This document shows positions 11,977 through 41,177 of a stretch of DNA of 41,177 bases, one piece after another; position 1 is the stretch's first letter, and each line of letters begins with the position of its first letter. The notes below the pieces were generated by a model. It made no database searches. It saw only the letters and a program-made list of their open reading frames with translations, and was not told the origin of the DNA. Both the position numbers and the translations under genes were made by a program. The stretch covers positions 1 through 41,177 of IMG/VR virus record IMGVR_UViG_643886067_000001; one strand, given 5' to 3'. The DNA comes from a virus (lineage: Duplodnaviria > Heunggongvirae > Uroviricota > Caudoviricetes).

Positions 11977-12158
11977 GAATCCTCCCGGCCGGGATAATAT
12001 TGTGAGTAAAATAAGGAGCGGGCTGAAGTCCGGAAGTTACAGGACAATGGCAGAAGAGAGACGACAGCCCGCAATTCGAAAAAGACCGCGCAGTTGCGCA
12101 GCCTTATGAATTCTGGTTAAAATCCATTCGATTATAAAAATGTATATCTCATGCTGTT

Positions 12159-12183
12159 GCCCGAACCCACTCGGGCTTTTTTT
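12159..12183 (+). terminator. Plus-strand intrinsic terminator-like hairpin
   Basis: GCCCGA-acccac-TCGGGC followed by TTTTTTT. Confidence 0.4.
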
Positions 12184-12184
12184 G

Positions 12185-12440
12185 CCCACAAGAAAGCCCC
12201 TCCGGAGAGGGGCTAAAGCCGCGTATCTGTATCATCATGCACATGGTGCCGGGTGCCTCCCGGTGAGTTCAGCCCGGTGCCACTAAACCCGCGTCATTCT
12301 CGTTTTGATAATCAGAGATTATACCGTCACCAGTCGCCCCTCCGCTCAGGGGGATTCACCATGCGAAATTTTTTTAACAAATGCCCAGTCTGACAGGCAA
12401 CTGTCAACTTACTGAATTGTGAGCAACATAGCATTTAACG
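12185..12440. repeat. Structured non-coding direct repeat, copy A
   Basis: Shares with copy B: hairpin AGCCCCTC-cgga-GAGGGGCT, GCATGGTGCCGGGTGCCTCCCGGTGAGTTCAG, CCCCTCCGC(T/A)CAGGGGGATTCACCATGC, CAAC(T/A)GTCAAC, CTGAATTGTGAG. Confidence 0.5.
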
Positions 12441-12674
12441 GGGAACCTGTTTTCTGCAGTAAAAAGGCCCACCGGAGCGGATGGGCCTGGAAGGATAGCG
12501 GTCATGTGATGCCGGTTTCCCGGTAACTCAGCACCGGTATCTGAGTCAACGTTTTCTCTACTGGGTCATTTCCGATACGCCCTGCCTGCTGACAGGCTTT
12601 CATCACATCTGAAAATATAGCACCCTGACTGATACTGTAGTACCTAAGGTTCCAGAAACTGTGATGTATCCGGC

Positions 12675-12920
12675 ACAGAAAAGCCCCTCCGGAGAGGGGC
12701 TGGAGAGTGGCACTATGTGCCATTGCATGGTGCCGGGTGCCTCCCGGTGAGTTCAGTATCAGCACCTGAACCCGCACAGAAAGGATAAGGGTCGGTGACA
12801 AAACACCAGTTGCTGATTGCCCCTCCGCACAGGGGGATTCACCATGCCAGTTTCTTTTAACAAACTCCCCGCAAACCAGACAACAGTCAACCGCCTGAAT
12901 TGTGAGGTATTTAAAAATTT
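12675..12920. repeat. Structured non-coding direct repeat, copy B
   Basis: Second copy of the same blocks ~490 bp from copy A; sequence between the conserved blocks diverges. Confidence 0.5.
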
Positions 12921-13704: not shown

Positions 13705-13781
13705 TGGCGCGTTGTACTGGATTCGAACCAGTGACCGATTGCTTAGAAGGCAATTGCTCTGTCCGGCTGAGCTAACAACGC
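13705..13781 (-). tRNA. argO: tRNA-Arg (anticodon UCU)
   Basis: 77 nt; hand-folded cloverleaf GCGTTGT-TA-GCTC...GAGC-A-ATTGC-CTTCTAA-GCAAT-...-TTCGAAT-...-ACAACGC-G-CCA. Confidence 0.8.
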
Positions 13782-13795
13782 AGAATGCCGATAAA

Positions 13796-13872
13796 TGGAC
13801 CGCCATCGAGGACTCGAACCCCGCGCAACCAGCTTCGAAGGCTGGCGCTCTATCCCGATGAGCTAATGGCGG
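13796..13872 (-). tRNA. argN: tRNA-Arg (anticodon UCG)
   Basis: 77 nt; cloverleaf with anticodon loop CTTCGAA, T-loop TTCGAGT, 3' CCA; unusual C1-G72 acceptor pair. Confidence 0.7.
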
Positions 13873-13881
13873 TATGTGATA

Positions 13882-13957
13882 TGGTGGCCCTTGCTGGATT
13901 TGAACCAGCGACCTGGCGATTATGAGTCGCTCGCTCTCACCACTGAGCTAAAGGGCC
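13882..13957 (-). tRNA. ileZ: tRNA-Ile2 (anticodon CAU, lysidine type; a scanner would call Met)
   Basis: 76 nt; near-identical in pattern to E. coli ileX (GGCCCTTTAGCTCAGTGGT...CTCATAA...TTCAAAT...GGGCCACCA). Confidence 0.8.
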
Positions 13958-20446: not shown

Positions 20447-20602
20447 TTACTCCTCAGGTTCGTAAGCTGTGAAGACAGCGACCTCCGTCTGGCCGGTTCG
20501 GATTCGTACCTCGCAGAGGTCTTTCCTCGTTACCAGTGCCGTCACAATGACGGTTAAACAGATGACGATCAGGGCGATTAGCATCGCCTTTTGCTGCTTC
20601 AT
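20447..20602 (-). CDS. hok: Hok/Gef-family type I toxin
   Basis: 51 aa MKQQKAMLIALIVICLTVIVTALVTRKDLCEVRIRTGQTEVAVFTAYEPEE, near-identical in pattern to HokC/Gef; hairpin at ~20415-20440 after stop. Confidence 0.85.
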   Translation of the reverse strand: MKQQKAMLIALIVICLTVIVTALVTRKDLCEVRIRTGQTEVAVFTAYEPEE

Positions 20603-20813
20603 AGCCTGCTTCTCCTTGCCTTTCGGCACGTAAGAGGCTAACCTACGTGTGTAGAGCATAGATATGGCCTCAGATTAATGTTAAGCGTCTTGCCGGACGC
20701 GTAATGTTAACTGGGGCTTTTCTCTATCTGCCTTTTGGTGTTCATGCCTGAGACAGATAGCCTCAAGCACCCGCTGCAATTCTACTTAACTCTCCTTTTC
20801 CCGCAAACCGTTT

Positions 20814-29402: not shown

Positions 29403-29964
29403 TTCACCCTCCTGAGGGTTGGTGATTAAGGAGTTCTCCACGGGTGAGGTGGAGTGCGTGCGCCGGACACGGGTGAGCATCCGGCACTGACAGTTTACTG
29501 AAAGGATATTTCCCTGAAAAGTCAGACCATAACGCGAAAGCGCTCGGCGAGGTAGCTGGTTCATAGATAGCCTGTCGTTAAATTTTCGTCGACCGTGCGC
29601 TTCCGGTTGTGGCAATCCGCGAAATGGCGCGGCGGTAAGTATGGCGGGGTTATTCCTTCCCCCGTTGAGGACACCGGGTTGTCAGGTTGACCATACGCTT
29701 AAGTGACAACCCCGCTGCAACGCCCTCTGTTATCAATTTTCTGGTGACGTTTGGCGGTATCAGTTTTACTCCGTGACTGCTCTGCCGCCCTTTTTAAAGT
29801 GAATTTTGTGATGTGGTGAATGCGGCTGAGCGCACGCGGAACAGTTAAAACCAAAAACAGTGTTATGGGTGGATTCTCTGTATCCGGCGTTAATTGTTAA
29901 CTGGTTAACGTCACCTGGAGGCACCAGGCACCGCATCACAAAATTCATTGTTGAGGACGCGATA

Positions 29965-30433: not shown

Positions 30434-32905
30434 ATGAGTAAAGTCTTTATTTGCGCCGCCATTCCGGACGAACAGGCAATAAAGGAAGAAGGTGCAGTCG
30501 CTGTAGCCACTGCCATTGAAGCCGGTGATGAACGTCGCGCCCGCGCAAAATTTCACTGGCAATTCCTGGAACATTATCCGGCTGCTCAGGACTGCGCTTA
30601 TAAATTTATTGTCTGTGAGGATAAACCCGGCATACCCCGCCCTGCCCTCGATTCCTGGGATGCTGAATATATGCAGGAAAACCGCTGGGATGAGGAGTCT
30701 GCTTCCTTTGTCCCGGTTGAGACTGAATCAGATCCGATGAACGTCACTTTTGACAAGTTGGCCCCTGAAGTACAGAACGCTGTCATGGTTAAGTTCGACA
30801 CATGTGAAAACATCACCGTTGATATGGTTATTAGCGCACAGGAATTGTTGCAGGAAGACATGGCAACATTCGACGGACATATCGTTGAAGCGTTGATGAA
30901 AATGCCAGAAGTTAACGCCATGTATCCGGAGCTTAAGCTGCATGCCATCGGGTGGGTTAAGCATAAATGTAAGCCTGGTGCCAAATGGCCCGAAATTCAG
31001 GCAGAGATGCGCATCTGGAAAAAACGTCGCGAAGGTGAACGCAAGGAAACCGGAAAATACACGTCTGTTGTTGATCTCGCCCGCGCCAGAACCAATCAAC
31101 AGCACAGTGAAAATTCAACAGGAAAAATCAGCCCGGTCATTGCTGCCATTCATCGCGAATACAAGCAGACATGGAAAACACTGGATGACGAACTGGCCTA
31201 CGCTCTCTGGCCTGGTGATGTGGATGCCGGAAACATTGACGGCAGCATCCATCGCTGGGCAAAAAATGAAGTTATCGACAACGACCGCGAAGACTGGAAG
31301 CGTATCTCGGCATCAATGCGCAAACAGCCTGATGCCCTTCGCTACGACCGCCAGACTATTTTTGGCCTTGTCCGTGAACGTCCGATCGACATTCACAAAG
31401 ACCCTGTGGCACTGAACAAATACATTACTGAATACCTGACTACAAAGGGCGTGTTTGAAGATGAAGGAAGAAATCAGAGCGCAACTGATACTCTCTCGTC
31501 GCCAGTACCAGAAACTGATGCAGTGGAAACGGCAATGCCGGACAACGAAAAAACCGAATGCGAAGTGGAAGACGAACCATCTGTAGAGCGTGAGGGACCG
31601 TTCTACTTCCTTTTCACCGATAAGGACGGCGAAAAATACGGTCGCGCAAACAAACTTTCTGGTCTGGAAAAAGCACTGGCCCTGGGAGCTACGGAAATCA
31701 CAAAAGAGGAATACTTCGCACGTAAAAACGGCACGTACTCTGGTTCACAACAAAATACTGGTGCATCTGACACGATCGCACAACCAGAGCCGGTAAAAGT
31801 TACCGCTGACGAAGTAAACAAAATTATGCAGGCAGCCAATATCAGCCAGCCTGACGCCAATAAGTTGCTTGCTGTATCACGTGGTGAATTTGTTGCAGGG
31901 ATTAGCGACCCGAATGATCCGAAATGGGTGAAGGGGATTGAAACCCGCGATTCAGTGAATCAGAACCAGCAAGAAACGGAACAGAACGGCCAGAAAGCGG
32001 AACAAAACAGCCCAAATGCGTTACAAAACGAGCCAGAAACGAAACAGCCTGAACCAGTGGCGCAACAGGAAGTGGAAAAAGTCTGCACCGCCTGCGGTCA
32101 GACCGGCGGCGGCAACTGCCCTGATTGTGGCGCGGTGATGGGCGACGCAACATACCAGGAAACATTCGATGAAGAGTATCAGGTTGAAGTTCAGGAAGAT
32201 GATCCGGAGGAAATGGAAGGCGCTGAACATCCACACAAGGAGAACACTGACGGCAATCAGCATCACGATAGCGATAATGAAACTGGCGAGACGGCAGATC
32301 ACTCAATTAAGGTGAACGGTCATCAAGAAATCACATCCACCAGCAGGACGTGTGACCATCTAATGATCGACCTTGAAACCATGGGAAAAAATCCTGATGC
32401 CCCGATCATCTCAATAGGTGCAATATTTTTCGATCCGCAAACCGGAGATATGGGACCGGAATTTAGTAAGACTATCGATCTGGAAACTGCTGGCGGGGTC
32501 ATTGATCGGGACACCATTAAATGGTGGCTTAAGCAATCACGCGAAGCGCAATCTGCCATTATGACCGATGAAATCCCGTTAGATGATGCACTGTTACAAT
32601 TGCGGGAATTTATCGACGAAAACTCCGGTGAATTTTTTGTTCAGGTCTGGGGAAATGGAGCCAACTTCGACAACACGATTTTGCGCCGTTCATACGAACG
32701 GCAGGGGATCCCCTGCCCGTGGCGTTACTACAACGATCGCGATGTACGCACAATCGTTGAGCTGGGGAAAGCCATAGACTTCGATGCCAGAACGGCTATT
32801 CCATTCGAAGGTGAGCGCCATAATGCACTTGATGACGCCCGTTACCAGGCAAAATACGTTTCAGTTATCTGGCAAAAACTGATCCCGAATCAGGCTGATT
32901 TTTAA
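30434..32905 (+). CDS. RecE-like large protein with acidic N-terminal region, central zinc ribbon and C-terminal DEDDh (DnaQ-like) 3'-5' exonuclease domain
   Basis: 823 aa; CTACGQTGGGNCPDCG; exonuclease motifs IDLETMG, GNGANFDNTIL, HNALDDARYQ; sits where recE/exo lies in Rac-type prophages, with no recT/bet-like neighbour. Confidence 0.7.
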   Translation: MSKVFICAAIPDEQAIKEEGAVAVATAIEAGDERRARAKFHWQFLEHYPAAQDCAYKFIVCEDKPGIPRPALDSWDAEYMQENRWDEESASFVPVETESDPMNVTFDKLAPEVQNAVMVKFDTCENITVDMVISAQELLQEDMATFDGHIVEALMKMPEVNAMYPELKLHAIGWVKHKCKPGAKWPEIQAEMRIWKKRREGERKETGKYTSVVDLARARTNQQHSENSTGKISPVIAAIHREYKQTWKTLDDELAYALWPGDVDAGNIDGSIHRWAKNEVIDNDREDWKRISASMRKQPDALRYDRQTIFGLVRERPIDIHKDPVALNKYITEYLTTKGVFEDEGRNQSATDTLSSPVPETDAVETAMPDNEKTECEVEDEPSVEREGPFYFLFTDKDGEKYGRANKLSGLEKALALGATEITKEEYFARKNGTYSGSQQNTGASDTIAQPEPVKVTADEVNKIMQAANISQPDANKLLAVSRGEFVAGISDPNDPKWVKGIETRDSVNQNQQETEQNGQKAEQNSPNALQNEPETKQPEPVAQQEVEKVCTACGQTGGGNCPDCGAVMGDATYQETFDEEYQVEVQEDDPEEMEGAEHPHKENTDGNQHHDSDNETGETADHSIKVNGHQEITSTSRTCDHLMIDLETMGKNPDAPIISIGAIFFDPQTGDMGPEFSKTIDLETAGGVIDRDTIKWWLKQSREAQSAIMTDEIPLDDALLQLREFIDENSGEFFVQVWGNGANFDNTILRRSYERQGIPCPWRYYNDRDVRTIVELGKAIDFDARTAIPFEGERHNALDDARYQAKYVSVIWQKLIPNQADF

Positions 32906-32969: not shown

Positions 32970-33218
32970 ATGGCAAGACTTATTCTGCTCACTGAGTGGG
33001 CAAAAGAGGAATTCAGTGAACCGGTCCCAACTCCGAGTACGTTAAGTAAATACGCTAAAGCCGGAATGATATTTCCTCTCCCCAAAAAAGTTGGAAGACG
33101 CTGGCGAGTGGATCCGCAAGCTCGCTTTGTCGGAATGGTAAACAAGCCGGAGGTGATCGCCACAGATCACCCTGCTTTGAAGAGGATACTGGAAGATGGC
33201 GCGCCCGCGAAAATATAA
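32970..33218 (+). CDS. xis: Excisionase (Xis)
   Basis: 82 aa; overlaps integrase start; lambda-Xis-like pattern. Confidence 0.7.
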   Translation: MARLILLTEWAKEEFSEPVPTPSTLSKYAKAGMIFPLPKKVGRRWRVDPQARFVGMVNKPEVIATDHPALKRILEDGAPAKI

Positions 33219-34326
33219 AACCGATGTTCCGGGATTATCTCCGTATTTTGACAAAAGAAATAACAAAGTTTACTGGCGTTACAGGCATCCCATAACAGGC
33301 AAAAATCACGGTCTCGGCAGTATTGACCAGAAACTGGCAGAAACTATTGCAGCAGAAGCGAACAGCCGTCTTGCCCGGCAGCAAATGGAACAAATGCTCA
33401 GTCTGCAGGAGAAAATTATTAGTGATACCGGCGGTTCATCAACCGTTACCATTTTTCTGAATAATTACAGAAAAATTCAACAGGAAAGATATGAAAACGG
33501 CGAGATCAAACTCAACACGCTGAAACAGAAAGCGGCCCCTCTCAGGGTATTTGATGAACGTTTTGGCACCAGACCGTTAGATGCCATAACCGTAAAAGAT
33601 GTGGTATCAGTACTGGAAGAGTACAAGGCCAGAGGACATAACAGAATGGGACAAATTTTCAGGAAAGTACTGATCGATGTTTTCCGGGAAGCTCAGCAAA
33701 CGGGCGATGTCCCGCCAGGCTTTAACCCTGCAGAATCGGCAAAAAAACCGCAGGTGCGGATATCAAGACAGCGACTGACTTTTGATGAGTGGATGATGAT
33801 TTATAACGCAGCGGAAAAGGATGGTTACTTTTTACAGCGCGGTATGCTGCTGGCACTGATGACAGGCCAGCGCCTTTCAGATATTTGCAAAATGCAATTT
33901 TCGGATATCCGGGATGGTTATCTTCATGTCGAACAGCAAAAAACAGGAACCCGGATTGCCATCCCTCTGGCTCTGCGTTGCGATAAATTAAATCTCACCC
34001 TGGATGATGTAGTGTCATCCTGCCGCGATTGCGTTCTTAGTCCGTGGCTATTGCACCACCATCACGCGAAAGGGACAGCTAAGCGCGGCGGGATGGTTAA
34101 GCCAGCAACATTAACCGTTGCATTTAAAAAAGCCCGGGATTCTGTGGATTACAACTGGCGTGCTAATGGCACCCCACCCTCTTTCCATGAGCAGAGATCT
34201 TTATCAGAGCGATTGTTCAGAGAGCAGGGGGTTGATACCAAAATTTTGCTGGGCCATTCGAATCAAAAAATGACCGATATTTACAACGACGCACGCGGTA
34301 AGGAATGGAAAAAACTGGTCATTTGA
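33196..34326 (+). CDS. int: Tyrosine integrase (lambda Int family)
   Basis: 376 aa; N-terminal arm-binding-like MARPRKYKTDVPGLSPYFDKRNNKVYWRYRHPITGK; C-terminal catalytic region (LLGHSNQKMTDIYN). Confidence 0.9.
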   Translation: MARPRKYKTDVPGLSPYFDKRNNKVYWRYRHPITGKNHGLGSIDQKLAETIAAEANSRLARQQMEQMLSLQEKIISDTGGSSTVTIFLNNYRKIQQERYENGEIKLNTLKQKAAPLRVFDERFGTRPLDAITVKDVVSVLEEYKARGHNRMGQIFRKVLIDVFREAQQTGDVPPGFNPAESAKKPQVRISRQRLTFDEWMMIYNAAEKDGYFLQRGMLLALMTGQRLSDICKMQFSDIRDGYLHVEQQKTGTRIAIPLALRCDKLNLTLDDVVSSCRDCVLSPWLLHHHHAKGTAKRGGMVKPATLTVAFKKARDSVDYNWRANGTPPSFHEQRSLSERLFREQGVDTKILLGHSNQKMTDIYNDARGKEWKKLVI

Positions 34327-34333
34327 TGACCAG

Positions 34334-34367
34334 TTTTGCAGAGGGGTTTTGCAGAGGTTTTGCAGAG
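34334..34367. repeat. Three direct TTTTGCAGAG repeats just after int (candidate arm-type integrase sites)
   Basis: Copies at 34334-43, 34347-56, 34358-67. Confidence 0.5.
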
Positions 34368-34371
34368 AAAA

Positions 34372-34497
34372 TTAAAAACGATATCCTGCGGAGAACATAA
34401 ACACCCACGGATCCAGTCGTACCGAGTCTTTTACGGTAGTAACACCAGATTTGTACTTAGCCGTGGTATCGATATCCATGTACCAGACCGTCATGCC
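34372..34497 (-). pseudogene. OmpW 3'-end fragment (about the last 40 codons), probably phage-borne copy of the attachment region
   Basis: Minus frame encodes ...TVWYMDIDTTAKYKSGVTTVKDSVRLDPWVFMFSAGYRF-stop, matching the OmpW C-terminus; no upstream ompW sequence present. Confidence 0.55.
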
Positions 34498-35776
34498 GGC
34501 TTTCATCCGGTAACCGGGCATTCGCACGGGTGGCATCCAGTGAAACAGCGCCCAGCCAGCCCATGTTTTTACCCACCCCCAGATTGAAGGCACGGTAGCG
34601 TTCAGCTATCCAGGCTCCTCCATACACCGTCCAGCCTGCCGGCAGACCATACTTCAGCGTTCCTTCAGCAAAACGGGGATTATCCTGCTGATGTCCGCCA
34701 CTGCGAAACTCTCCGGCACTGAGAGCATATTTCAGATGCCCTTCACGTTGCAGTACAGGCACCGAAGACCATGGCACATTAAATCGCTGTACACTGCCAT
34801 CAGCTTCCTGCAGGGTTACCTGTAAGTCACCTCCACTCCCGGCCGGATAAATATCGTTTATCTCGAACGGGCCTGGAGGTAGCGTACTCTGGTAAATTTC
34901 ATACCCGTTCTGGCGGATACTAATCCGGGATGTTCCCCGGGAAATACCGTGAATTGTCGGTGCATACCCTCTCTGGCTGTCCGGAACCATATTGTCATCA
35001 GAGGCCAGTTGAATCCCCCTGAAATTTACACCGTCAAAAATATCCCCCCGGGTATAACTGTCCCCCATCGTCAGACGGGAGCGCAGGGAAACTATATCCC
35101 GCTCCAGCCAGGTGTTAATGTGCTGCCAGTTATTCTGGCTGTACCCCTTTCCGGCACTGTAACTCCAGCTGGTGTTGTCCCGAAGACGCCAGCTCCCGAT
35201 ATTCAGTCCTGTTTTCAGATTCAGATAGGCATAATCGCTGGTGCCACCATAGCTGTCGCGCACCCGATTACCACTGAAGTCATAATTCAGCAATGCCGCT
35301 GTAATTCCGTTATCCCAGTATTCCGGCGCAATATAACCACGGGCCTGATTACTCATATATAACTGAGGAACGGTCAGGTACAATCGCTGCTGCCCGACAT
35401 CAAACCGGAATGTGGCACCCTGAATCATGGAATTCAGTGATGTGCAGGTGTCAGCCGGCAGTCTCTCCATACCCGGCACGGCATAACGGTTTACCCCCAT
35501 CGCACTCATATGCTCCGGACTCAGGCAGGGGGCAAGTTGCTTCCCGTCCTGACTCATCTGAAACTGCACGTCACGGGTTGAGATATACGTATCATTCAGA
35601 TAAATATCCACCCGGTACACGCCTGGCGGAAGCTCCTGCCCCTGTGTAAATGCAGACAGGTCCGCAACCGCATCCGGGTCATCAGACAGAAAACGCGGAT
35701 TAAAATAGAGCTCAGCCCGGGCCGGAGAAACAATTATCCCGATAAAAAATGCCAGCGGCAGTATATTAAATTTCAT
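34490..35776 (-). pseudogene. Fimbrial usher (FimD/SfaF/FocD-like), N-terminal ~430 aa only, truncated at the prophage junction
   Basis: Signal peptide MKFNILPLAFFIGIIVSPARA then strong colinear usher similarity (ELYFNPRFLSDDP...YRAFNLGVGKNMG...LPDESRHDG); usher similarity ends at ~34490, frame stops at 34457. Confidence 0.7.
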
Positions 35777-35920
35777 TCTGTTATTACCCCCGCCAGCAGA
35801 GCCGGTCAGTGATTTATCAGACAGGAGCTGTCCGCCATCTCCGAAAAACATGTCAGCCCCCACACTGAGCGAAAAAATAAAATCAGCAGCCAAACACAAC
35901 CAGTACCAGAAATAACTGAG

Positions 35921-36616
35921 TTACTTCACAACACCCTTCACCTGTTCAGTCAGAGCACCATAATCGTTAATTGTTTTATAAGTAATATCTCCTCCGGTGT
36001 ATCCTCCAGGGATATTCACAGTGACCTTTCCCTGTGGGGGTACCATGGTGTTTTCAAGACTTTTATTTCCGGCCTTTAAGTCAGTCACTGTCAGATAATA
36101 CGGCGTCGGATTAAACAGAGTCAGCCCTCCGTTTTCACGGGTGAACTCTAATTTACCCGGTGCCTGTTCTGGCGGAATAACCAGTCCCTGTGGACGGTAG
36201 AGCAGTTTAATTCTGCTGACAATTGCAAACTGCAGATAATTCTCGCCGGTTTTCGCCTTATCCATGGCCGGGATGGCCTTGACATTCACCCAGAACAAAC
36301 TTTCCCTGTCTTCCGGCATCTGTCCGTTTGTGGCATCAATAATTCTCAGGGTATTCTCTTTCTTTCCCTGCATGGAAAATAACGGAGGAGTAATTACAAA
36401 CCGGGCATCCTTTTTTCCCTCAGCATTTTCAATCCATGACTGAATAAGGTAACTACTTTTATCATCATTATTTGTTACCGCCAGTTGTACCTGTTTTTGC
36501 CCTTCAGGGTAAATCACACGGGTGGCCCCCAGAGCAACCCCGGCATAGCTCTGCGGAATATAAAAAAAGACTAAAAATGATGCCAGAACGGCCCATATAC
36601 GCATGTGCTTCATCAT
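35921..36616 (-). CDS. Fimbrial periplasmic chaperone (PapD/FimC family)
   Basis: 231 aa; signal peptide; GVALGATRVIYPEG...LIQSWIEN...RESLFWVNVKAIP motifs. Confidence 0.85.
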   Translation of the reverse strand: MMKHMRIWAVLASFLVFFYIPQSYAGVALGATRVIYPEGQKQVQLAVTNNDDKSSYLIQSWIENAEGKKDARFVITPPLFSMQGKKENTLRIIDATNGQMPEDRESLFWVNVKAIPAMDKAKTGENYLQFAIVSRIKLLYRPQGLVIPPEQAPGKLEFTRENGGLTLFNPTPYYLTVTDLKAGNKSLENTMVPPQGKVTVNIPGGYTGGDITYKTINDYGALTEQVKGVVK

Positions 36617-36656
36617 GTTATTAACAGCCTTAATTAAATGGCGTTATATCTGCCAG

Positions 36657-37205
36657 TTACAGATAGGTCAGAGAAAACCATACCTGTCCATTTGCCTTTC
36701 CCCCGGTGACGGGATAATGTGTGGCCTTATACCTCGCCTGCATATGCAGTTTCATATCTCCGCGGGTAAGATGCACCCAGTTCTCCGGAGGCTGATTAAG
36801 TTTTACCAGCTCTCCGCTTTCATTAAATAAAGCGATAGCGATTCCGTCTGAGGCATCATTCTCCTCATCCACCGACAGCAACTCCGGCTCGTGAATATCT
36901 GACACGCCATAAAAGGAAATCCCCACCCGCTGACTGACGACAGTGCTGCAGCCCTGAAGGTGAATATCAAAGCCCACAGAGTCCCCATACTCACCGGCGG
37001 CGTGAAATCGATTGCTGCTAAGTTGCCCCATATCCACAGTCATCTGCCTGTCTGACAGGGCAAGACTGCATGCTTCAGCAATTATTTTTCCCTGGAAGCG
37101 CATGTTTCCTCCCGGAAGCATGACATGCCAGTGGTTTCCGGCCAGTGCAGCGGGAGACAGCAAAAATAACATTATTGCCATTTTCGATATTTTCATTAAT
37201 CTCAC
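36657..37205 (-). CDS. Fimbrial minor subunit (FimI-like)
   Basis: 182 aa; signal peptide; fimbrin-like with conserved Cys pair and C-terminal beta-strand. Confidence 0.7.
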   Translation of the reverse strand: MRLMKISKMAIMLFLLSPAALAGNHWHVMLPGGNMRFQGKIIAEACSLALSDRQMTVDMGQLSSNRFHAAGEYGDSVGFDIHLQGCSTVVSQRVGISFYGVSDIHEPELLSVDEENDASDGIAIALFNESGELVKLNQPPENWVHLTRGDMKLHMQARYKATHYPVTGGKANGQVWFSLTYL

Positions 37206-37266
37206 ACCCGCATGGATAAAAACAGCCCTCCCTGGCCGGGTATATATCCGTTACACTGTTCTGATA

Positions 37267-37809
37267 TTACTGGTACTGAACTTTAAAGGTGGCGTCGGCG
37301 TTGGCAATACCAGCAGTGGCCTGTCCAGTTGCGTAGTAAACCGCCTGAAATGGAATTTTGTTGGTTCCGTCAGTTAATGTAAACGTTGAGCTTGCAGTTC
37401 CATCTAAAGGTACAACCTTGCCGGTATGGTCAGTAATCTGAACGCCGACGTTTGTTGCAGAACCCGCTGCAGAACTTTGTAAAGCAAGAACATCTGTTTT
37501 ACCAGTAACTGCTGGGCCTGAAAAGACAATTCCTGCACCAGCAGACACCTGCGAGTCACAATCATTTAATTCAATTGTAAATCCAACTGGATTGCTTTTA
37601 GCTCCATCTACTTTCAATCTTTCGGAACGAACCTGTCCAAGATTAACCGTCTGATCGAATGAGTTAGTGTTTACAGCACATGCAGCATTAACCACTTCAC
37701 CCTTAAAATGAACTGTACCACCATTAACCGTGGTGACAGCAGACGCATTTGTTGCAACACCCAGGGTCAGAGCTGAAAATACAGCCATGGAGATGAATTT
37801 TAACTTCAT
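37267..37809 (-). CDS. Major fimbrial subunit, S/F1C-type (SfaA/FocA-like)
   Basis: 180 aa; signal peptide [24 protein letters not shown]; FimA-family core; C-terminal ...ATFKVQYQ. Confidence 0.85.
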
Positions 37810-38180
37810 ATTTAATTCCTGTTTTTAATTGAACTACGCACACCGTATCTGTCATCACAACAGACACAATCAATATCCCGAACGACGGGAATCTTTTTTC
37901 AGGAGAACTTCATAAATGCAATGTGAGAAATACACTCAGGCAGCATTTATGACATTATCTCCCGATAATATTTTCCGGTTAACCGACAGGAATCTTCTCT
38001 ATAGATAAGATTCCCTGGATGATAAGCTATGAGTTAGCACTCCTGTCTCCACACTGAATGCTTTAGCAAAAGCAGAGAATGAAAGCATGCCTCGTTGATA
38101 ATACCCGCACTCTCATTTGACTGCAGGCTTATATTTCTCGCGTATTATGTATTGCCCCGGCGTTTTTTATTGTCCGTATT

Positions 38181-38510
38181 TTACAGGGAAGCAGCTTCAG
38201 CTATAGCTGATACACTATCAGTATAATAAGGAGCAAGTCTGGCAACGAGGACATTCAACCTGGTAAGGCGCCCAAGCGTTGTACTGAAATATCCATTATT
38301 CATCTGGTATTTCTCGCAGACATCTTTACGGGAATGACCACTGACCAGATAATCCTTCATAGCGAGAATAACTCTGTCACTGTGAATAGAGGAAATACCT
38401 ATCAGTAAAAAAAATTGTTCTTCAGACATGGAGCCGGATGACAGCGCGCTCTCACGTAATTTTAGTAAAAAAGCATCCCCTCCCCGGGTAATAACTTCAT
38501 GCTGTGCCAT
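38181..38510 (-). CDS. PapB/SfaB/FocB-family fimbrial regulator
   Basis: 109 aa MAQHEVITRGGDAFLLKLRES...FFLLIGISSIHSDRVILAMKDYLVSGHSRKDVCEKYQMNNGYFSTTLGRL closely matches PapB-family pattern. Confidence 0.8.
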   Translation of the reverse strand: MAQHEVITRGGDAFLLKLRESALSSGSMSEEQFFLLIGISSIHSDRVILAMKDYLVSGHSRKDVCEKYQMNNGYFSTTLGRLTRLNVLVARLAPYYTDSVSAIAEAASL

Positions 38511-38625
38511 TCGATACTCCCCACCCCGCCACCTACAGGGCTGCCTTAATATTCATCCCCCATACAGGAGGGCCTGGCTCCTTAAGATATATTTAGTTTT
38601 TTATGTTGTAAACATGTATTTTGAC

Positions 38626-38731
38626 GATCTTTTGATCTGTAAAGCTGTTTATTTTTAGGGTTACATCTTGCAATGGATTAGTGTTTTAGTGATTAATGCT
38701 GCATAAGAATTAATATTCAGTATAAAAGATC
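38626..38731. promoter_or_regulatory. Pap-like Dam/Lrp phase-variation switch (two GATC sites 102 bp apart)
   Basis: GATC at 38626-29 (acGATCtttt) and 38728-31 (aaaGATCgtt) in the intergenic region between divergent papB-like and papI-like genes; further GATC at 38634 and 38858. Confidence 0.6.
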
Positions 38732-38928
38732 GTTAAAATCGTTTTTTGCAACGTTCCTTACCATTGAAAAAACTATAAAAATAATGTGATAGAAATCCAA
38801 TCGTGAATATGTTTCGCATATTAAGTAAATACACCAAATACAATATAAAAACATGATGATCACATTTGAATTGTCAAAAACAAGTCAGCCACTTATTATC
38901 CTTTTGCTTATATAGAGAGGATGATGAT

Positions 38929-39150
38929 ATGCAGAATGAAATAATGGGTTTTCTGAGCAGACATAATGGAGGGAAAACCGCAGAAATTGCGGAGGCGCTG
39001 GCGGTAACGGATTACCAGGCACGCTATTACCTGTTATTACTGGAAAAAGAAGGTATGGTTCAGCGCTCTCCGTTAAGACGAGGCATGGCAACATACTGGT
39101 TTCTGAAAGGAGAGATGCAGGCGGGACAGAGCTGTTCTTCCACAACTTAA
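38929..39150 (+). CDS. PapI/SfaC/FocI-family fimbrial regulator
   Basis: 73 aa [61 protein letters not shown]; GAGGA upstream. Confidence 0.8.
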
Positions 39151-39341
39151 TAACTCAGTTTGTGGGCATGCTTCACTGAAACAGATAAAAGTTACATCAG
39201 AGTGCAGATTCAATTTTGCAGCATTCGTCACAAAATAAAAATCCAGCATTTTATGTCAGAATACCTCACATGATAATAAAACCTGTCCGGTTTTACTGCA
39301 TGGCCAGACATTATACAAAAGCAAATCCTGTAAACTCCATT

Positions 39342-39378
39342 CAGCCTCCTTGCTATCCGGTAACGGAGGCTGTTTTTT
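39342..39378 (+). terminator. Intrinsic terminator-like hairpin
   Basis: CAGCCTCC-ttgctatccggtaac-GGAGGCTG followed by TTTTTT. Confidence 0.4.
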
Positions 39379-39424
39379 CGTTACGCCTTTCCCCGGCAGC
39401 ATCAGTAGCAGTAATTTATAGATT

Positions 39425-40003
39425 CTACGAACTGAGACTGTCTGTCCGGGGAGAACATACGTAACCCGGCGCAAGGCTCCTGTCAATTACCTCCGGCCTC
39501 TGCTCCCTTGGTTGCCAGACAGAGTCTCTGACGACCATGCTTTCAGTGTCAGCGCCAGTGATATAAGACGGTAAATGGGGATGCGGACGATTTCCTGTAT
39601 CACGTCTGTTGGCGCTTAGCCTCAGAATATCCACCACCAGACGCTGACTGTCTGACCAAAACAGGCCGTTCAGTGCGATCACCTGCAATCCCGTTTCCAG
39701 CGCATACTTCAGTCGTTCACGGGGCGCTTTCACTTCCCGGGCAATTTGCTGCCATGGCGATGATGTATTTTCACTCCCAACCATCCGGCGAATACGATGA
39801 GACAGATGATACCGGAATATATCCGGCACACCAGAAAGACTGGCTTTCAGGCTGTACACGCAGCCAAACCGTTTATCGTTGAACACCACATTTTTCTGGC
39901 TGATATCCCATGCTTCCCGAAGTGTAACAATCAGCTGTGGCGTCCGGGTTAAAAGCAGACGAAAAGGCAGTTCAAAACTGGTGACGTAATCCACATTCAG
40001 CAA
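39425..40003 (-). CDS. Hypothetical protein, possibly distal fragment of a disrupted gene
   Basis: 192-aa ORF; out of frame with the ORF at 40236-40748; no family recognised. Confidence 0.3.
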   Translation of the reverse strand: MLNVDYVTSFELPFRLLLTRTPQLIVTLREAWDISQKNVVFNDKRFGCVYSLKASLSGVPDIFRYHLSHRIRRMVGSENTSSPWQQIAREVKAPRERLKYALETGLQVIALNGLFWSDSQRLVVDILRLSANRRDTGNRPHPHLPSYITGADTESMVVRDSVWQPREQRPEVIDRSLAPGYVCSPRTDSLSS

Positions 40004-40235
40004 TGTAATATGCAGCCGTTCTTCTGCCCCGCCTCAGTCTGCCGACACTCCTCCAGGACATCCTGCCACTGCTGGCGAAGACGTGAGGATTAATTCCGCC
40101 AAGGTAAAACAGTATTTATCCGCCATAGAGTCAATTCGTGTACACATACTGAAAAGAATTCCGTATAAAGATTCAGCAGACAAAACTTTATCAGTCTGTA
40201 AAAATTAACGGAAGAGTTGATATTTCTCCCGATCA

Positions 40236-40748
40236 TCACCGGATAATTGTTGCAATAACCAGTGGCATCAGAGACTGAACAGCTGTTTTTAACGCAACGT
40301 ATTGCTCTGATGTATCAGGCCGGGTAACCCGAAAACACCTTTCCACCCGACATTGTCCGCCAGCGTTTATCCCCCGCCAGGCCTGCTGCAGTAAATCCAC
40401 CACTTGCGAACATTCTTCATCAACTGTGGCACTGACCCGCAGATGGCAAATGCTCGCCTGGCTGAGCAGCAACAGGCATCGTATTGTTGCTCCTCCATGT
40501 TGTTCCCGCAACCAGCGTAATACCACCGGCGGTGCTGGACTGGCAGTGTGATTACGCTCAGTAATATGTTCTTGCACCTGTCGGTAAAAGGCAGTACAGA
40601 ATGCATGAATCTGTTGCCCGTTGATGTTTCCTTCTGCCGAATGGAGTGTGAAGTAAAATGCCAGCAAATGCGGCCAGTGGTCCACCGCCTGCTGAACAAA
40701 ACGCCGGATGTCTCCCGGCTCTGAAATTAAGGCTTCGGTTATTTGCAC
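40236..40748 (-). CDS. Hypothetical protein, possibly proximal fragment of a disrupted gene
   Basis: 170-aa ORF; followed by a 230-nt gap then a second ORF in another frame. Confidence 0.3.
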   Translation of the reverse strand: MQITEALISEPGDIRRFVQQAVDHWPHLLAFYFTLHSAEGNINGQQIHAFCTAFYRQVQEHITERNHTASPAPPVVLRWLREQHGGATIRCLLLLSQASICHLRVSATVDEECSQVVDLLQQAWRGINAGGQCRVERCFRVTRPDTSEQYVALKTAVQSLMPLVIATIIR

Positions 40749-41177
40749 GAAATCTTCCTTTTCAAACCCTGTTGGATTTTGTCAAGCCGGTGCAGACACA
40801 GTAAAGCGCGCATCAACACCTGAAAGGTACGATACAAACACAAGTTACAAACAATAAGAACGGAAGGACAATTAATCAGTGAGGAATAATAACTAAATTA
40901 ACCAAAAGAATGTTACTGACAATACCACCAATACTTAAATAGCAATATATTAATTAATGTAAGAACAGATGCCCGGTAAGACATATACACAATACATCCA
41001 CAAACACACTCTTTTCATTAAATAAATCACCTGATTAAACCATGAAAGTGTGATGTAAGTCAAAATTACTGACACAATCAATTGATAATGATTATCTCTA
41101 TCATTATCGTGATATTCGAGAATGAAAGGAGAAGTAGTCATTATAAGCCTTTTATAAATCGTCATCATCATAGTAAA

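Follow-up and report, generated by a model that had tools for sequence, protein, structure and literature searches.

The window (the whole stretch of 41,177 nucleotides analysed here) contains the int-proximal part of a lambda-like prophage, with its recombination genes and attachment region, directly abutting a truncated usher gene and the adjoining genes of an F1C fimbrial operon. Its features are as follows:

1-34490: int-proximal part (~34.5 kb) of a lambdoid prophage of ~53 kb belonging to the PPompW (ompW-integrating) family, from collinearity with MCJCHV-1 and PPompW records
32970-33218, plus strand: xis, excisionase (Pfam PF07825 Exc, E 1.3e-7; excisionase or xisE in related annotations)
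33196-34326, plus strand: int, lambda-type tyrosine integrase with an N-terminal arm-binding domain (Pfam PF09003 and PF00589; phmmer)
34334-34367, plus strand: three tandem TTTTGCAGAG repeats, candidate arm-type Int-binding sites of the int-proximal arm (exact copies at 34334, 34347 and 34358)
34372-34490, minus strand: phage-borne ompW 3' end, last ~39 codons and stop, equal to the 121-bp "att" block of PPompW (Pfam, LC567822, lysogen annotation)
34465-34490: 26-bp common core GGTATCGATATCCATGTACCAGACCG, the sole stretch identical between both prophage ends in an ompW lysogen (MCJCHV-1 junctions compared)
34484-34490: predicted 7-bp overlap (strand-exchange) region CAGACCG, from the flanking inverted repeat and the focD and ycaO joints
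34457-35851, minus strand: focD', truncated usher, FocD residues 1-455 plus 9 out-of-frame residues with the stop inside the ompW block (CFT073 comparison, Pfam)
35921-39150: promoter-proximal remainder of the F1C (foc/sfa) operon, named after the CFT073 annotation, comprising the next five entries
35921-36616, minus strand: focC, chaperone
36657-37205, minus strand: sfaD
37267-37809, minus strand: focA, major subunit
38181-38510, minus strand: regulator
38866-39150, plus strand: sfaC, regulator

Positions 1-30053 of the window are collinear with, and 99.86% identical to, the ompW prophage of MCJCHV-1, and the int-att segment is 99.5-99.8% identical to PPompW phage records (1,290 bp, 12 phage records). 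The 121-bp ompW-derived att block of the PPompW prophages has been verified by attP PCR (Nakamura et al. 2021, PMC8112680; LC567818-LC567841). The int and xis genes of this type, the same three arm repeats and the att block (34370-34490) are all present in the window. PPompW prophages, however, sit in ompW and rebuild the gene, whereas the chromosomal side here is focD from 34486 on, and the block that abuts it encodes nothing functional. They also differ in their late and moron regions, the window representing a UPEC-type 53-kb variant without T3SS effector loci. Judged from its sequence, the window prophage is a member of the PPompW family by machinery, located at a non-canonical site. The remaining, distal ~19 kb lies outside the window, past its left end; individual distal-arm proteins, which are not cluster representatives, are present on 253 to >1,000 contigs. 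Among 5,426 complete E. coli genomes, about 1,720 have the int-ompW' unit located in ompW, in keeping with the sequence-only reading, which had taken an ompW 3' end beside int to mean that ompW is the normal target.

The integrase matched the arm-binding and catalytic families PF09003 (E 7e-22) and PF00589 (E 1e-16), and its central domain reached 24.3 bits with PF22022, under the curated cut-off of 27 bits. In phmmer it aligned over its full length (residues 14-375) with the lambda Int structures 1Z1B, 1Z1G and 5J0N (E about 1e-55). These domain and structure matches describe a heterobivalent Int with arm-binding, core-binding and catalytic domains. The exact TTTTGCAGAG repeat occurs three times against 0.12 copies expected, a number reached in none of 100 shuffles. 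The int-side copies start 153, 140 and 129 bp from the overlap centre, the array spanning 153 to 120 bp, and would be analogues of lambda P'1-P'3. In MCJCHV-1 and FDAARGOS_1281, which carry the same phage, the distal arm has a fourth copy 124-133 bp beyond the overlap centre, and the diverged O145 PPompW carries TTTTGCAGGA there, so that the position is conserved. Candidate arm-type sites are thus repeated on both attP arms, far from the core, and the copy at the mirror position strengthens the earlier description of the three repeats as arm-site-like.

The minus-strand ORF at 34372-34593 ends in ...VWYMDIDTTAKYKSGVTTVKDSVRLDPWVFMFSAGYRF and matches the C-terminal 41 positions of Pfam OmpW (155-195 of 195, E 4.6e-13), as expected of the OmpW C-terminus that had been proposed to follow int. 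The block coincides with the annotated 121-bp duplication of LC567822, and in ordinary lysogens the annotated ompW gene ends, on its 3' side, in this same DNA. In attP the heptamer reads ATGTAC-CAGACCG-GTAGAT, its flanks forming what appears to be an inverted repeat. The empty attB of CFT073 has CAGACTG where the phage has CAGACCG; this primary-site mismatch was considered as a reason for secondary-site use and left as speculation, since the T allele at attL is seen as well in many ompW lysogens whose int arm is identical.

Phage and focD share 5 bp, GACCG, at the junction: identity to focD starts at 34486 and identity to ompW and phage ends at 34490. From 34486 to 41177 the window is collinear with CFT073 at 99.9% identity; for the focD portion, identity is 100% with sfaF/FocD from both CFT073 and Nissle 1917. 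The focD target reads CTGACCG, matching the phage CAGACCG at six of seven positions, and the joint falls inside the overlap, as in secondary-site integration. The target partially matches the left core site (C-N-A-T-N-T) and shows poor similarity to the right-hand one. By chance alone, an E. coli genome would offer around 13,000 matches to the heptamer at six or more of its seven positions, so this likeness does not account for the choice of focD. The first 455 residues of focD' are identical to CFT073 SfaF/FocD (876 aa); the gene breaks after codon 455 and continues out of frame for nine residues (LVHGYRYHG). The sequence-only reading was therefore right about a switch to a FimD-type usher near 34490 (joint at 34486-34490), while the residue it gave for the cut, ~430, has to be corrected to 455 of 876. 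Pfam finds PapC_N and positions 1-246 of the 549 of the Usher profile in focD', with PapC_C unmatched, and residues 456-876 are missing from this copy of the gene. As the usher lacks half its barrel and both C-terminal domains, we predict that F1C fimbriae cannot be assembled with it.

The same prophage lies inside ycaO in FDAARGOS_1281, with both halves of the target gene flanking it. The crossover occurred in the same heptamer as in focD, with the joints in CCAGA (34483-34487). Put back together, the two ycaO halves show 100% identity with the uninterrupted gene along 218 bp; recombination was therefore conservative, neither adding nor deleting a base. The focD joint (within 34486-34490) and the ycaO joint (within 34483-34487) together bracket the exchange to 34483-34490, and we infer the exact boundaries of the overlap within attP from these joints and the flanking repeat. 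Two natural pseudo-site events, in focD and ycaO, thus map the strand-exchange region of this prophage family.

CFT073 and Nissle 1917, with which the foc region of the window was compared, are close relatives (ST73) of E. coli 83972, an asymptomatic-bacteriuria (ABU) strain for which a similar insertion has been published. According to Zdziarski 2010 (PMC2928814), "Prophage 2" of 83972 is "similar to EHEC prophages" and "inserted into the focD gene", inactivating F1C; its published size is ~70 genes. The 83972 gene list in PMC12263705 has a "C terminal part of... usher SfaF" together with sfaG/S/H/Y/X. The order of the island, microcin, F1C, salmochelin, is also that of the window. The likeness between the window element and 83972 (CP001671) prophage 2 is one of description, and ompW, the att site and a secondary-site mechanism go unmentioned for 83972 in the searched passages of both papers. 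The insertion into focD is accordingly already known, and the att-level detail alone is new.

Taken together, the evidence makes it very probable that the window holds a lambda-like, ompW-targeting prophage that integrated, by ordinary secondary-site recombination, at a look-alike site midway along focD and split the F1C usher gene. The ompW 3' end is duplicated in the phage attP as a block of 121 bp, with which normal integration restores ompW. Strand exchange would take place at the outer edge of this block, in the 7-bp overlap CAGACCG (34484-34490), flanked by putative inverted core-type sites and, some 120-150 bp off on both arms, by the arm-type TTTTGCAGAG. Recombination at the focD heptamer CTGACCG, presumably catalysed by Int, would put the whole prophage between focD codons 455 and 456. 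The junction in the window would then be the int-proximal end, attL in lambda terms, and the focD 3' half followed by focFGH-sfaYX would be expected beyond the far end of the prophage, some 19 kb to the left of the window. We infer that the distal junction would read ...AACGATATGACTGACCG joined to GTAGATTATAAAAAATG..., or, with the overlap base written out, ...CAGAAAACGATATGAC[T/A]GACCG joined to GTAGATTATAAAAAATGTAATAAC..., continuing into focD codons 456-876. In lambda, a mismatch in the overlap lowers the efficiency of recombination; the phage and focD overlaps differ at one base.

Could the junction be an assembly chimera, in which the end of an ompW-prophage contig was joined to a focD contig? 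The att block is a repeat at both prophage ends, where assemblers break, and the junction is in no complete RefSeq genome; it was absent from all 5,426 complete E. coli genomes, including the about 1,720 with the int-att unit in ompW. However, four Logan contigs, separately assembled from several sequencing runs, match the window across the junction along as much as 14.5 kb, with 100% identity (12 contig-sample occurrences, one contig being recorded in 9 samples), and the exact 464-aa focD' product is on 4 Logan contigs. Since independent read-run assemblies reproduce the junction without a difference, it is not a misassembly; moreover, this insertion is also reported for another, independently published genome (PMC2928814). 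We regard a chimera as extremely improbable. On the other side of the break, a 381-aa FocD C-terminal ORF, starting at the first ATG past the break, is on 5 contigs from Logan and ENA assemblies. Such an ORF would be called only where an in-frame disruption falls between codons 430 and 496, and the fragment probably comes from the same genomes as the junction. A homology search with it (P0121) returned other fragment-length clusters only, neither P0121 itself nor full-length FocD being among them, and the predicted junction-spanning ORFs of 29 and 42 aa were not in the protein collection. Exact-pattern scans for the observed and the predicted reciprocal junction gave 0 matches in genome, viral and metagenome contig collections, which is uninformative because the lineage is not in those collections.

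The other explanations start from a lysogen with the prophage in ompW. A microhomology-mediated illegitimate deletion or rearrangement could have fused the prophage end to focD, removing the focD 3' half and the tip and adhesin genes; the 5 bp (GACCG) shared at the junction are typical of such joins, and the downstream foc genes are absent from the window. Yet a break within a few bases of the att strand-exchange site would be an unlikely coincidence, the insertion of the same phage into ycaO, a second pseudo-site, is conservative and likewise joined in the heptamer, and a FocD C-terminal fragment starting just past the break is present in assemblies. In CFT073, ompW and focD lie on the same strand, in direct orientation and 365 kb apart, so an intrachromosomal join would be a 365-kb deletion, and the loss of that much from a CFT073-like chromosome would be expected to include essential genes. 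Finally, published work on 83972 describes an insertion that left the downstream genes in place. A deletion of this kind thus seems highly improbable. Int itself could instead have recombined attL of the ompW-resident prophage with the focD pseudo-site within the chromosome, giving a large inversion and not a fresh integration; the local junction would be the same, with its joint in the overlap region, and int and xis are intact. The direct orientation of ompW and focD in CFT073 would, however, give a deletion instead; the ompW5'::focD3' hybrid proteins predicted for an inversion are absent from a collection of 15 billion proteins, a weak argument given that this look-up is allele-specific; and what has been published is a prophage of ~70 genes inserted into focD. 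We consider an inversion very unlikely. The sequence-only reading had left two alternatives open, a secondary site inside the usher or a deletion that removed the usher C-terminus and any tip or adhesin genes. The break in the heptamer, the ycaO insertion, the 381-aa FocD fragment and the 83972 literature argue for the former, i.e. Int-mediated integration at a secondary site; the latter finds no support, given that the FocD C-terminal fragment exists and that 83972 keeps sfaG/S/H/Y/X.

Beyond the integration itself, the prophage might act as a reversible switch ("active lysogeny"), its precise excision rebuilding full-length focD and restoring F1C in a subpopulation. With int and xis intact and the insertion presumably conservative, precise excision would rebuild focD; that it operates as such a switch we nonetheless think unlikely. 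Were it true, F1C expression in this lineage would hinge on prophage induction, and the rebuilt focD would carry at most Q456L, should the phage-type overlap base stay.

Secondary-site integration by lambda offers a close precedent, in that a heterobivalent Int joins attP to a chromosomal site only partly matching the 7-bp overlap, with the joint inside the overlap, a conservative insertion and a disrupted target gene. The present case concerns another phage with another core, and the focD and ycaO events come from natural isolates, not from attB-deleted laboratory hosts. With e14 and icd-type modules, the window phage shares a diverged replacement of the target 3' end, exchange at the 5' edge of the duplicated block and, in related records, the gene names intE/xisE; it differs in its target gene and in that its replacement fragment is orphaned.

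Urinary-tract and probiotic E. coli use F1C fimbriae to adhere and to form biofilms, and losing them through the focD insertion is among the attenuating lesions that have been described in the therapeutic bacteriuria strain 83972. Little is added here: focD was disrupted by an ompW-specific phage gone to a pseudo-site. About one complete E. coli genome in three contains a prophage of this family, and the mapping of its strand-exchange region by two pseudo-site events, although no surprise to a specialist, is useful for annotating prophage boundaries and for predicting off-target integration.

The int-proximal end of the prophage, which we show to carry a lambda-type Int/Xis/attP system, and the adjoining DNA are organized in the window as follows:

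30434-32905, plus strand: exonuclease gene, 823 aa
32970-33218, plus strand: excisionase gene (excisionase family, Pfam)
33196-34326, plus strand: integrase gene, 376 aa, with lambda arm-binding and catalytic domains (Pfam)
34334, 34347 and 34358, plus strand: three exact TTTTGCAGAG repeats
Minus strand: ompW 3' piece, encoding ...VWYMDIDTTAKYKSGVTTVKDSVRLDPWVFMFSAGYRF-stop
Right of the joint: F1C fimbrial locus with usher focD, chaperone focC, sfaD, focA and two regulators (CFT073 annotation)

The integrase aligned end to end with lambda Int crystal structures (E ~1e-55), and the ...VWYMDIDTTAKYKSGVTTVKDSVRLDPWVFMFSAGYRF peptide corresponds to the C-terminal 41 positions of the Pfam OmpW model (E 4.6e-13), as the sequence-only reading had proposed in placing an ompW 3' end beside int. 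The three repeats, previously called arm-site-like (0.12 expected; a count of three was reached by no shuffle), lie, on the int side, 153 to 120 bp from the centre of the predicted overlap (heptamer CAGACCG, 34484-34490). A fourth exact TTTTGCAGAG in the same orientation is present 124-133 bp distal of the overlap centre in the prophages of E. coli MCJCHV-1 and FDAARGOS_1281, and the diverged O145 PPompW carries TTTTGCAGGA at the matching distal position, with arm homology stopping just past it. These distal copies support the label, and all are candidate arm sites.

The int-att segment (33196-34485) is 99.5-99.8% identical to "PPompW" phage records and was found at a coverage of at least 80% in 1,720 of 5,426 complete E. 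coli genomes, ompW being annotated under the match almost always among the matches listed. Among 60 records sampled at a spread across the 1,730 int-positive ones, 59 rows had ompW under the match, the remaining one being a mere 73-bp partial match to an unnamed gene, which indicates that secondary insertions are rare. The ompW prophage of MCJCHV-1 (53 kb) and the prophage part of the window are 99.86% identical across 30 kb; the latter thus represents the int-proximal 34.5 kb of such an element, whose distal end would lie ~19 kb past the left edge. For PPompW phages, Nakamura et al. 2021 (PMC8112680) defined a 121-bp att, which the attP sequence of excised circles confirmed, and this annotated block maps to window positions 34370-34490. 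The two prophage ends of MCJCHV-1 have just 26 bp in common (GGTATCGATATCCATGTACCAGACCG, window 34465-34490): to the left, the ompW 3' end carried by the phage differs clearly from the native one, and to the right follows either ompW 5' DNA (ACATATT...) or the distal phage arm (GTAGATTAT...).

From 34486 rightward, the window is 99.9% identical to and collinear with the CFT073 F1C locus. The usher frame equals CFT073 FocD over 455 residues, runs through nine out-of-frame codons in the ompW piece and stops, and the Pfam usher domain covers profile positions 1-246 of 549 only. The fusion to the middle of an usher gene had therefore been described correctly, but the break falls after residue 455 of the 876-aa precursor and not at ~430. 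Phage identity runs through 34490 and focD identity begins at 34486, the last phage-specific base being the A at 34485 (T in focD) and the first focD-specific base the T at 34491, which places the joint within GACCG, inside the heptamer. The corresponding focD heptamer, CTGACCG, matches CAGACCG at six of seven positions, and a break at random would be unlikely to fall there. The junction is spanned by none of the 5,426 complete RefSeq E. coli genomes and was not found in viral, metagenome and species-representative genome collections. An assembly chimera is nevertheless excluded for practical purposes, since the exact 464-aa fused usher product occurs on four Logan contigs (one of them in nine samples), all 100% identical to the window over the junction, up to 14.5 kb; the junction thus exists in several sequencing runs.

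An independent event is found in FDAARGOS_1281, among the first 25 matches listed, where an identical int-att unit stands beside a truncated ycaO instead of ompW. As this genome is complete (NZ_CP070134.1), both prophage ends could be read: the element sits between focA-pflB and ycaP-serC (L010 4130-4400 and L011 8097-8910, the two end loci), its int end reading ...CATGTACCAGA|AGGGCTG (ycaO 3' part, focA-pflB side) and its distal end ...GATGTGCCAGA|CCGGTAGATTAT (ycaO 5' part, ycaP-serC side). Rejoined at the common CCAGA, the ycaO halves gave 218 bp 100% identical to the intact gene of other genomes, and ycaO is uninterrupted at this point in 5,423 of 5,426 genomes. Bases were neither added nor removed, as is characteristic of conservative site-specific recombination. 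ycaO is therefore a second natural secondary attachment site of the ompW-type phage, and the joint of this conservative insertion and the focD joint of the same phage fall in one heptamer.

The joints fall at 34483-34487 (ycaO) and 34486-34490 (focD) which, with an assumed 7-bp overlap, leaves CCAGACC or CAGACCG only. The right edge of attP, ATGTAC-CAGACCG-GTAGAT, is an imperfect inverted repeat around the heptamer, with the geometry of lambda, where core-type sites flank a 7-bp overlap; the centre of this repeat favours CAGACCG as the predicted overlap. Both pseudo-sites match the ompW left core site at C-N-A-T-N-T (4/8 and 6/8 positions), a weak signal. The predicted heptamer varies at synonymous codon positions of ompW: the MCJCHV-1 lysogen has CAGACCG, many lysogens and the empty CFT073 site have CAGACTG, and the O145 lysogen has CACACTG. 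Both prophage ends of each lysogen examined share one allele, which is what a requirement for identity at this place would predict. The CFT073-type CAGACTG has one mismatch to the phage heptamer, no better than focD, and it is tempting to speculate that this could help to explain pseudo-site use; we did not adopt this idea, because the T allele also occurs at attL in many ompW lysogens whose int arm is the same.

We propose that Int catalysed recombination between attP and focD, tolerating one overlap mismatch. The phage-type A at 34485 suggests that the lineage inherited the strand joined at the right-hand boundary, in which case the distal focD junction should read ...GATATGACTGACCG|GTAGATTAT. 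The two FDAARGOS_1281 joints are both at the left boundary, which would fit the sister strand or Holliday-junction resolution before the heterology.

Integration at a secondary site in the usher and a deletion or rearrangement removing its C-terminus and tip genes had both been put forward, and three lines of evidence argue that the focD 3' half and downstream genes were retained. The distal side is predicted to encode a 381-aa ORF beginning at the first ATG past the break, and this product occurs on five Logan/ENA contigs in a 15-billion-protein collection (longest 11.3 kb). In-frame starts of the intact gene fall at codons 409, 426 and 430 and then not before 496, so that the 381-aa call presupposes an interruption between codons 430 and 496. 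In CFT073, ompW is unoccupied (plus strand, 1.558 Mb) and focD lies 365 kb away in direct orientation (plus strand, 1.190 Mb). An intrachromosomal join would therefore delete a large region, expected to include essential genes, whereas an inversion would yield hybrid ompW::focD proteins, which are not on record, none being found in the same protein collection.

CFT073 and the window are nearly identical in the foc region, and in the focD part the window is 100% identical to CFT073 and Nissle 1917, which we take to be ST73 relatives of E. coli 83972; the window is thus very probably the 83972 focD locus or a close relative of it. As the third line of evidence, in this asymptomatic bacteriuria strain "Prophage 2" (ECABU_c11290-c11990), "similar to EHEC prophages", is reported to lie in focD and to inactivate F1C fimbriae, within an island ordered microcin - F1C - salmochelin (Zdziarski et al. 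2010, PMC2928814), and a 2025 transcriptome paper on the strain names, alongside sfaG, sfaS, sfaH, sfaY and sfaX, the "C terminal part of... usher protein SfaF" (PMC12263705). Altogether, the joint in the att heptamer, the ycaO insertion, the 381-aa ORF and these reports speak for secondary-site integration; the ORF, the CFT073 geometry and the 83972 reports count against the deletion.

Some additional features were observed. The phage-borne ompW 3' end (34372-34490, compared with the CFT073 ompW locus, L013 5945-6583) changes native ...TTANYKLGGAQQHDSV... to ...TTAKYKSGVTTVKDSV... between the last two beta-strands, so that integration in ordinary lysogens rewrites the putative last OmpW surface loop, as assigned from 8-stranded barrel topology; this may represent a receptor-altering lysogenic conversion. 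At the MCJCHV-1 distal end (NZ_CP030111.1, L009 1-320), the native ompW 3' fragment displaced by the prophage carries a frameshift annotation and directly adjoins trpA; yciE and yciF, between ompW and trpA in CFT073, are missing from MCJCHV-1. A partial YkgJ-family remnant lies just upstream of ompW in CFT073 (L013 5616-5705) and MCJCHV-1 (L002 6054-6143), and the prophage distal arm has a complete ykgJ-like gene ~1.1 kb from att (L009 1405-1737); phages that passed through this locus earlier may have left such a scar. Small RNA genes detected in the prophage by Rfam and ARAGORN (29739-29790 (+), 20597-20772 (-), 12129-12876, 13705-13957 (-)) comprise DicF upstream of dicB, a hok/sok module, two STnc100 copies with an AsxR-like sRNA match exactly at the gathering threshold, and three tRNAs (Arg-TCT, Arg-TCG, Met/Ile-CAT). 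AS-pc02, an antisense RNA family from plasmid pHK01, matched island DNA upstream of the foc regulators (39300-39481 (+), 54.9 bits, gathering score 40).

Since the truncated usher lacks the distal half-barrel and both C-terminal domains, F1C fimbriae cannot be assembled, in line with the phenotype annotated in the literature. With int and xis intact and the insertion conservative, excision could reversibly restore focD, although we consider this very improbable. Integration at secondary sites is textbook behaviour for lambda-type integrases. The prophage insertion into focD was itself already known, having been published in 2010; what is new is that the disrupting element is identified as an ompW-specific phage, that two natural pseudo-site events place its strand-exchange region, and that ycaO provides a second pseudo-site. 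These details are useful for annotation and come as no surprise.
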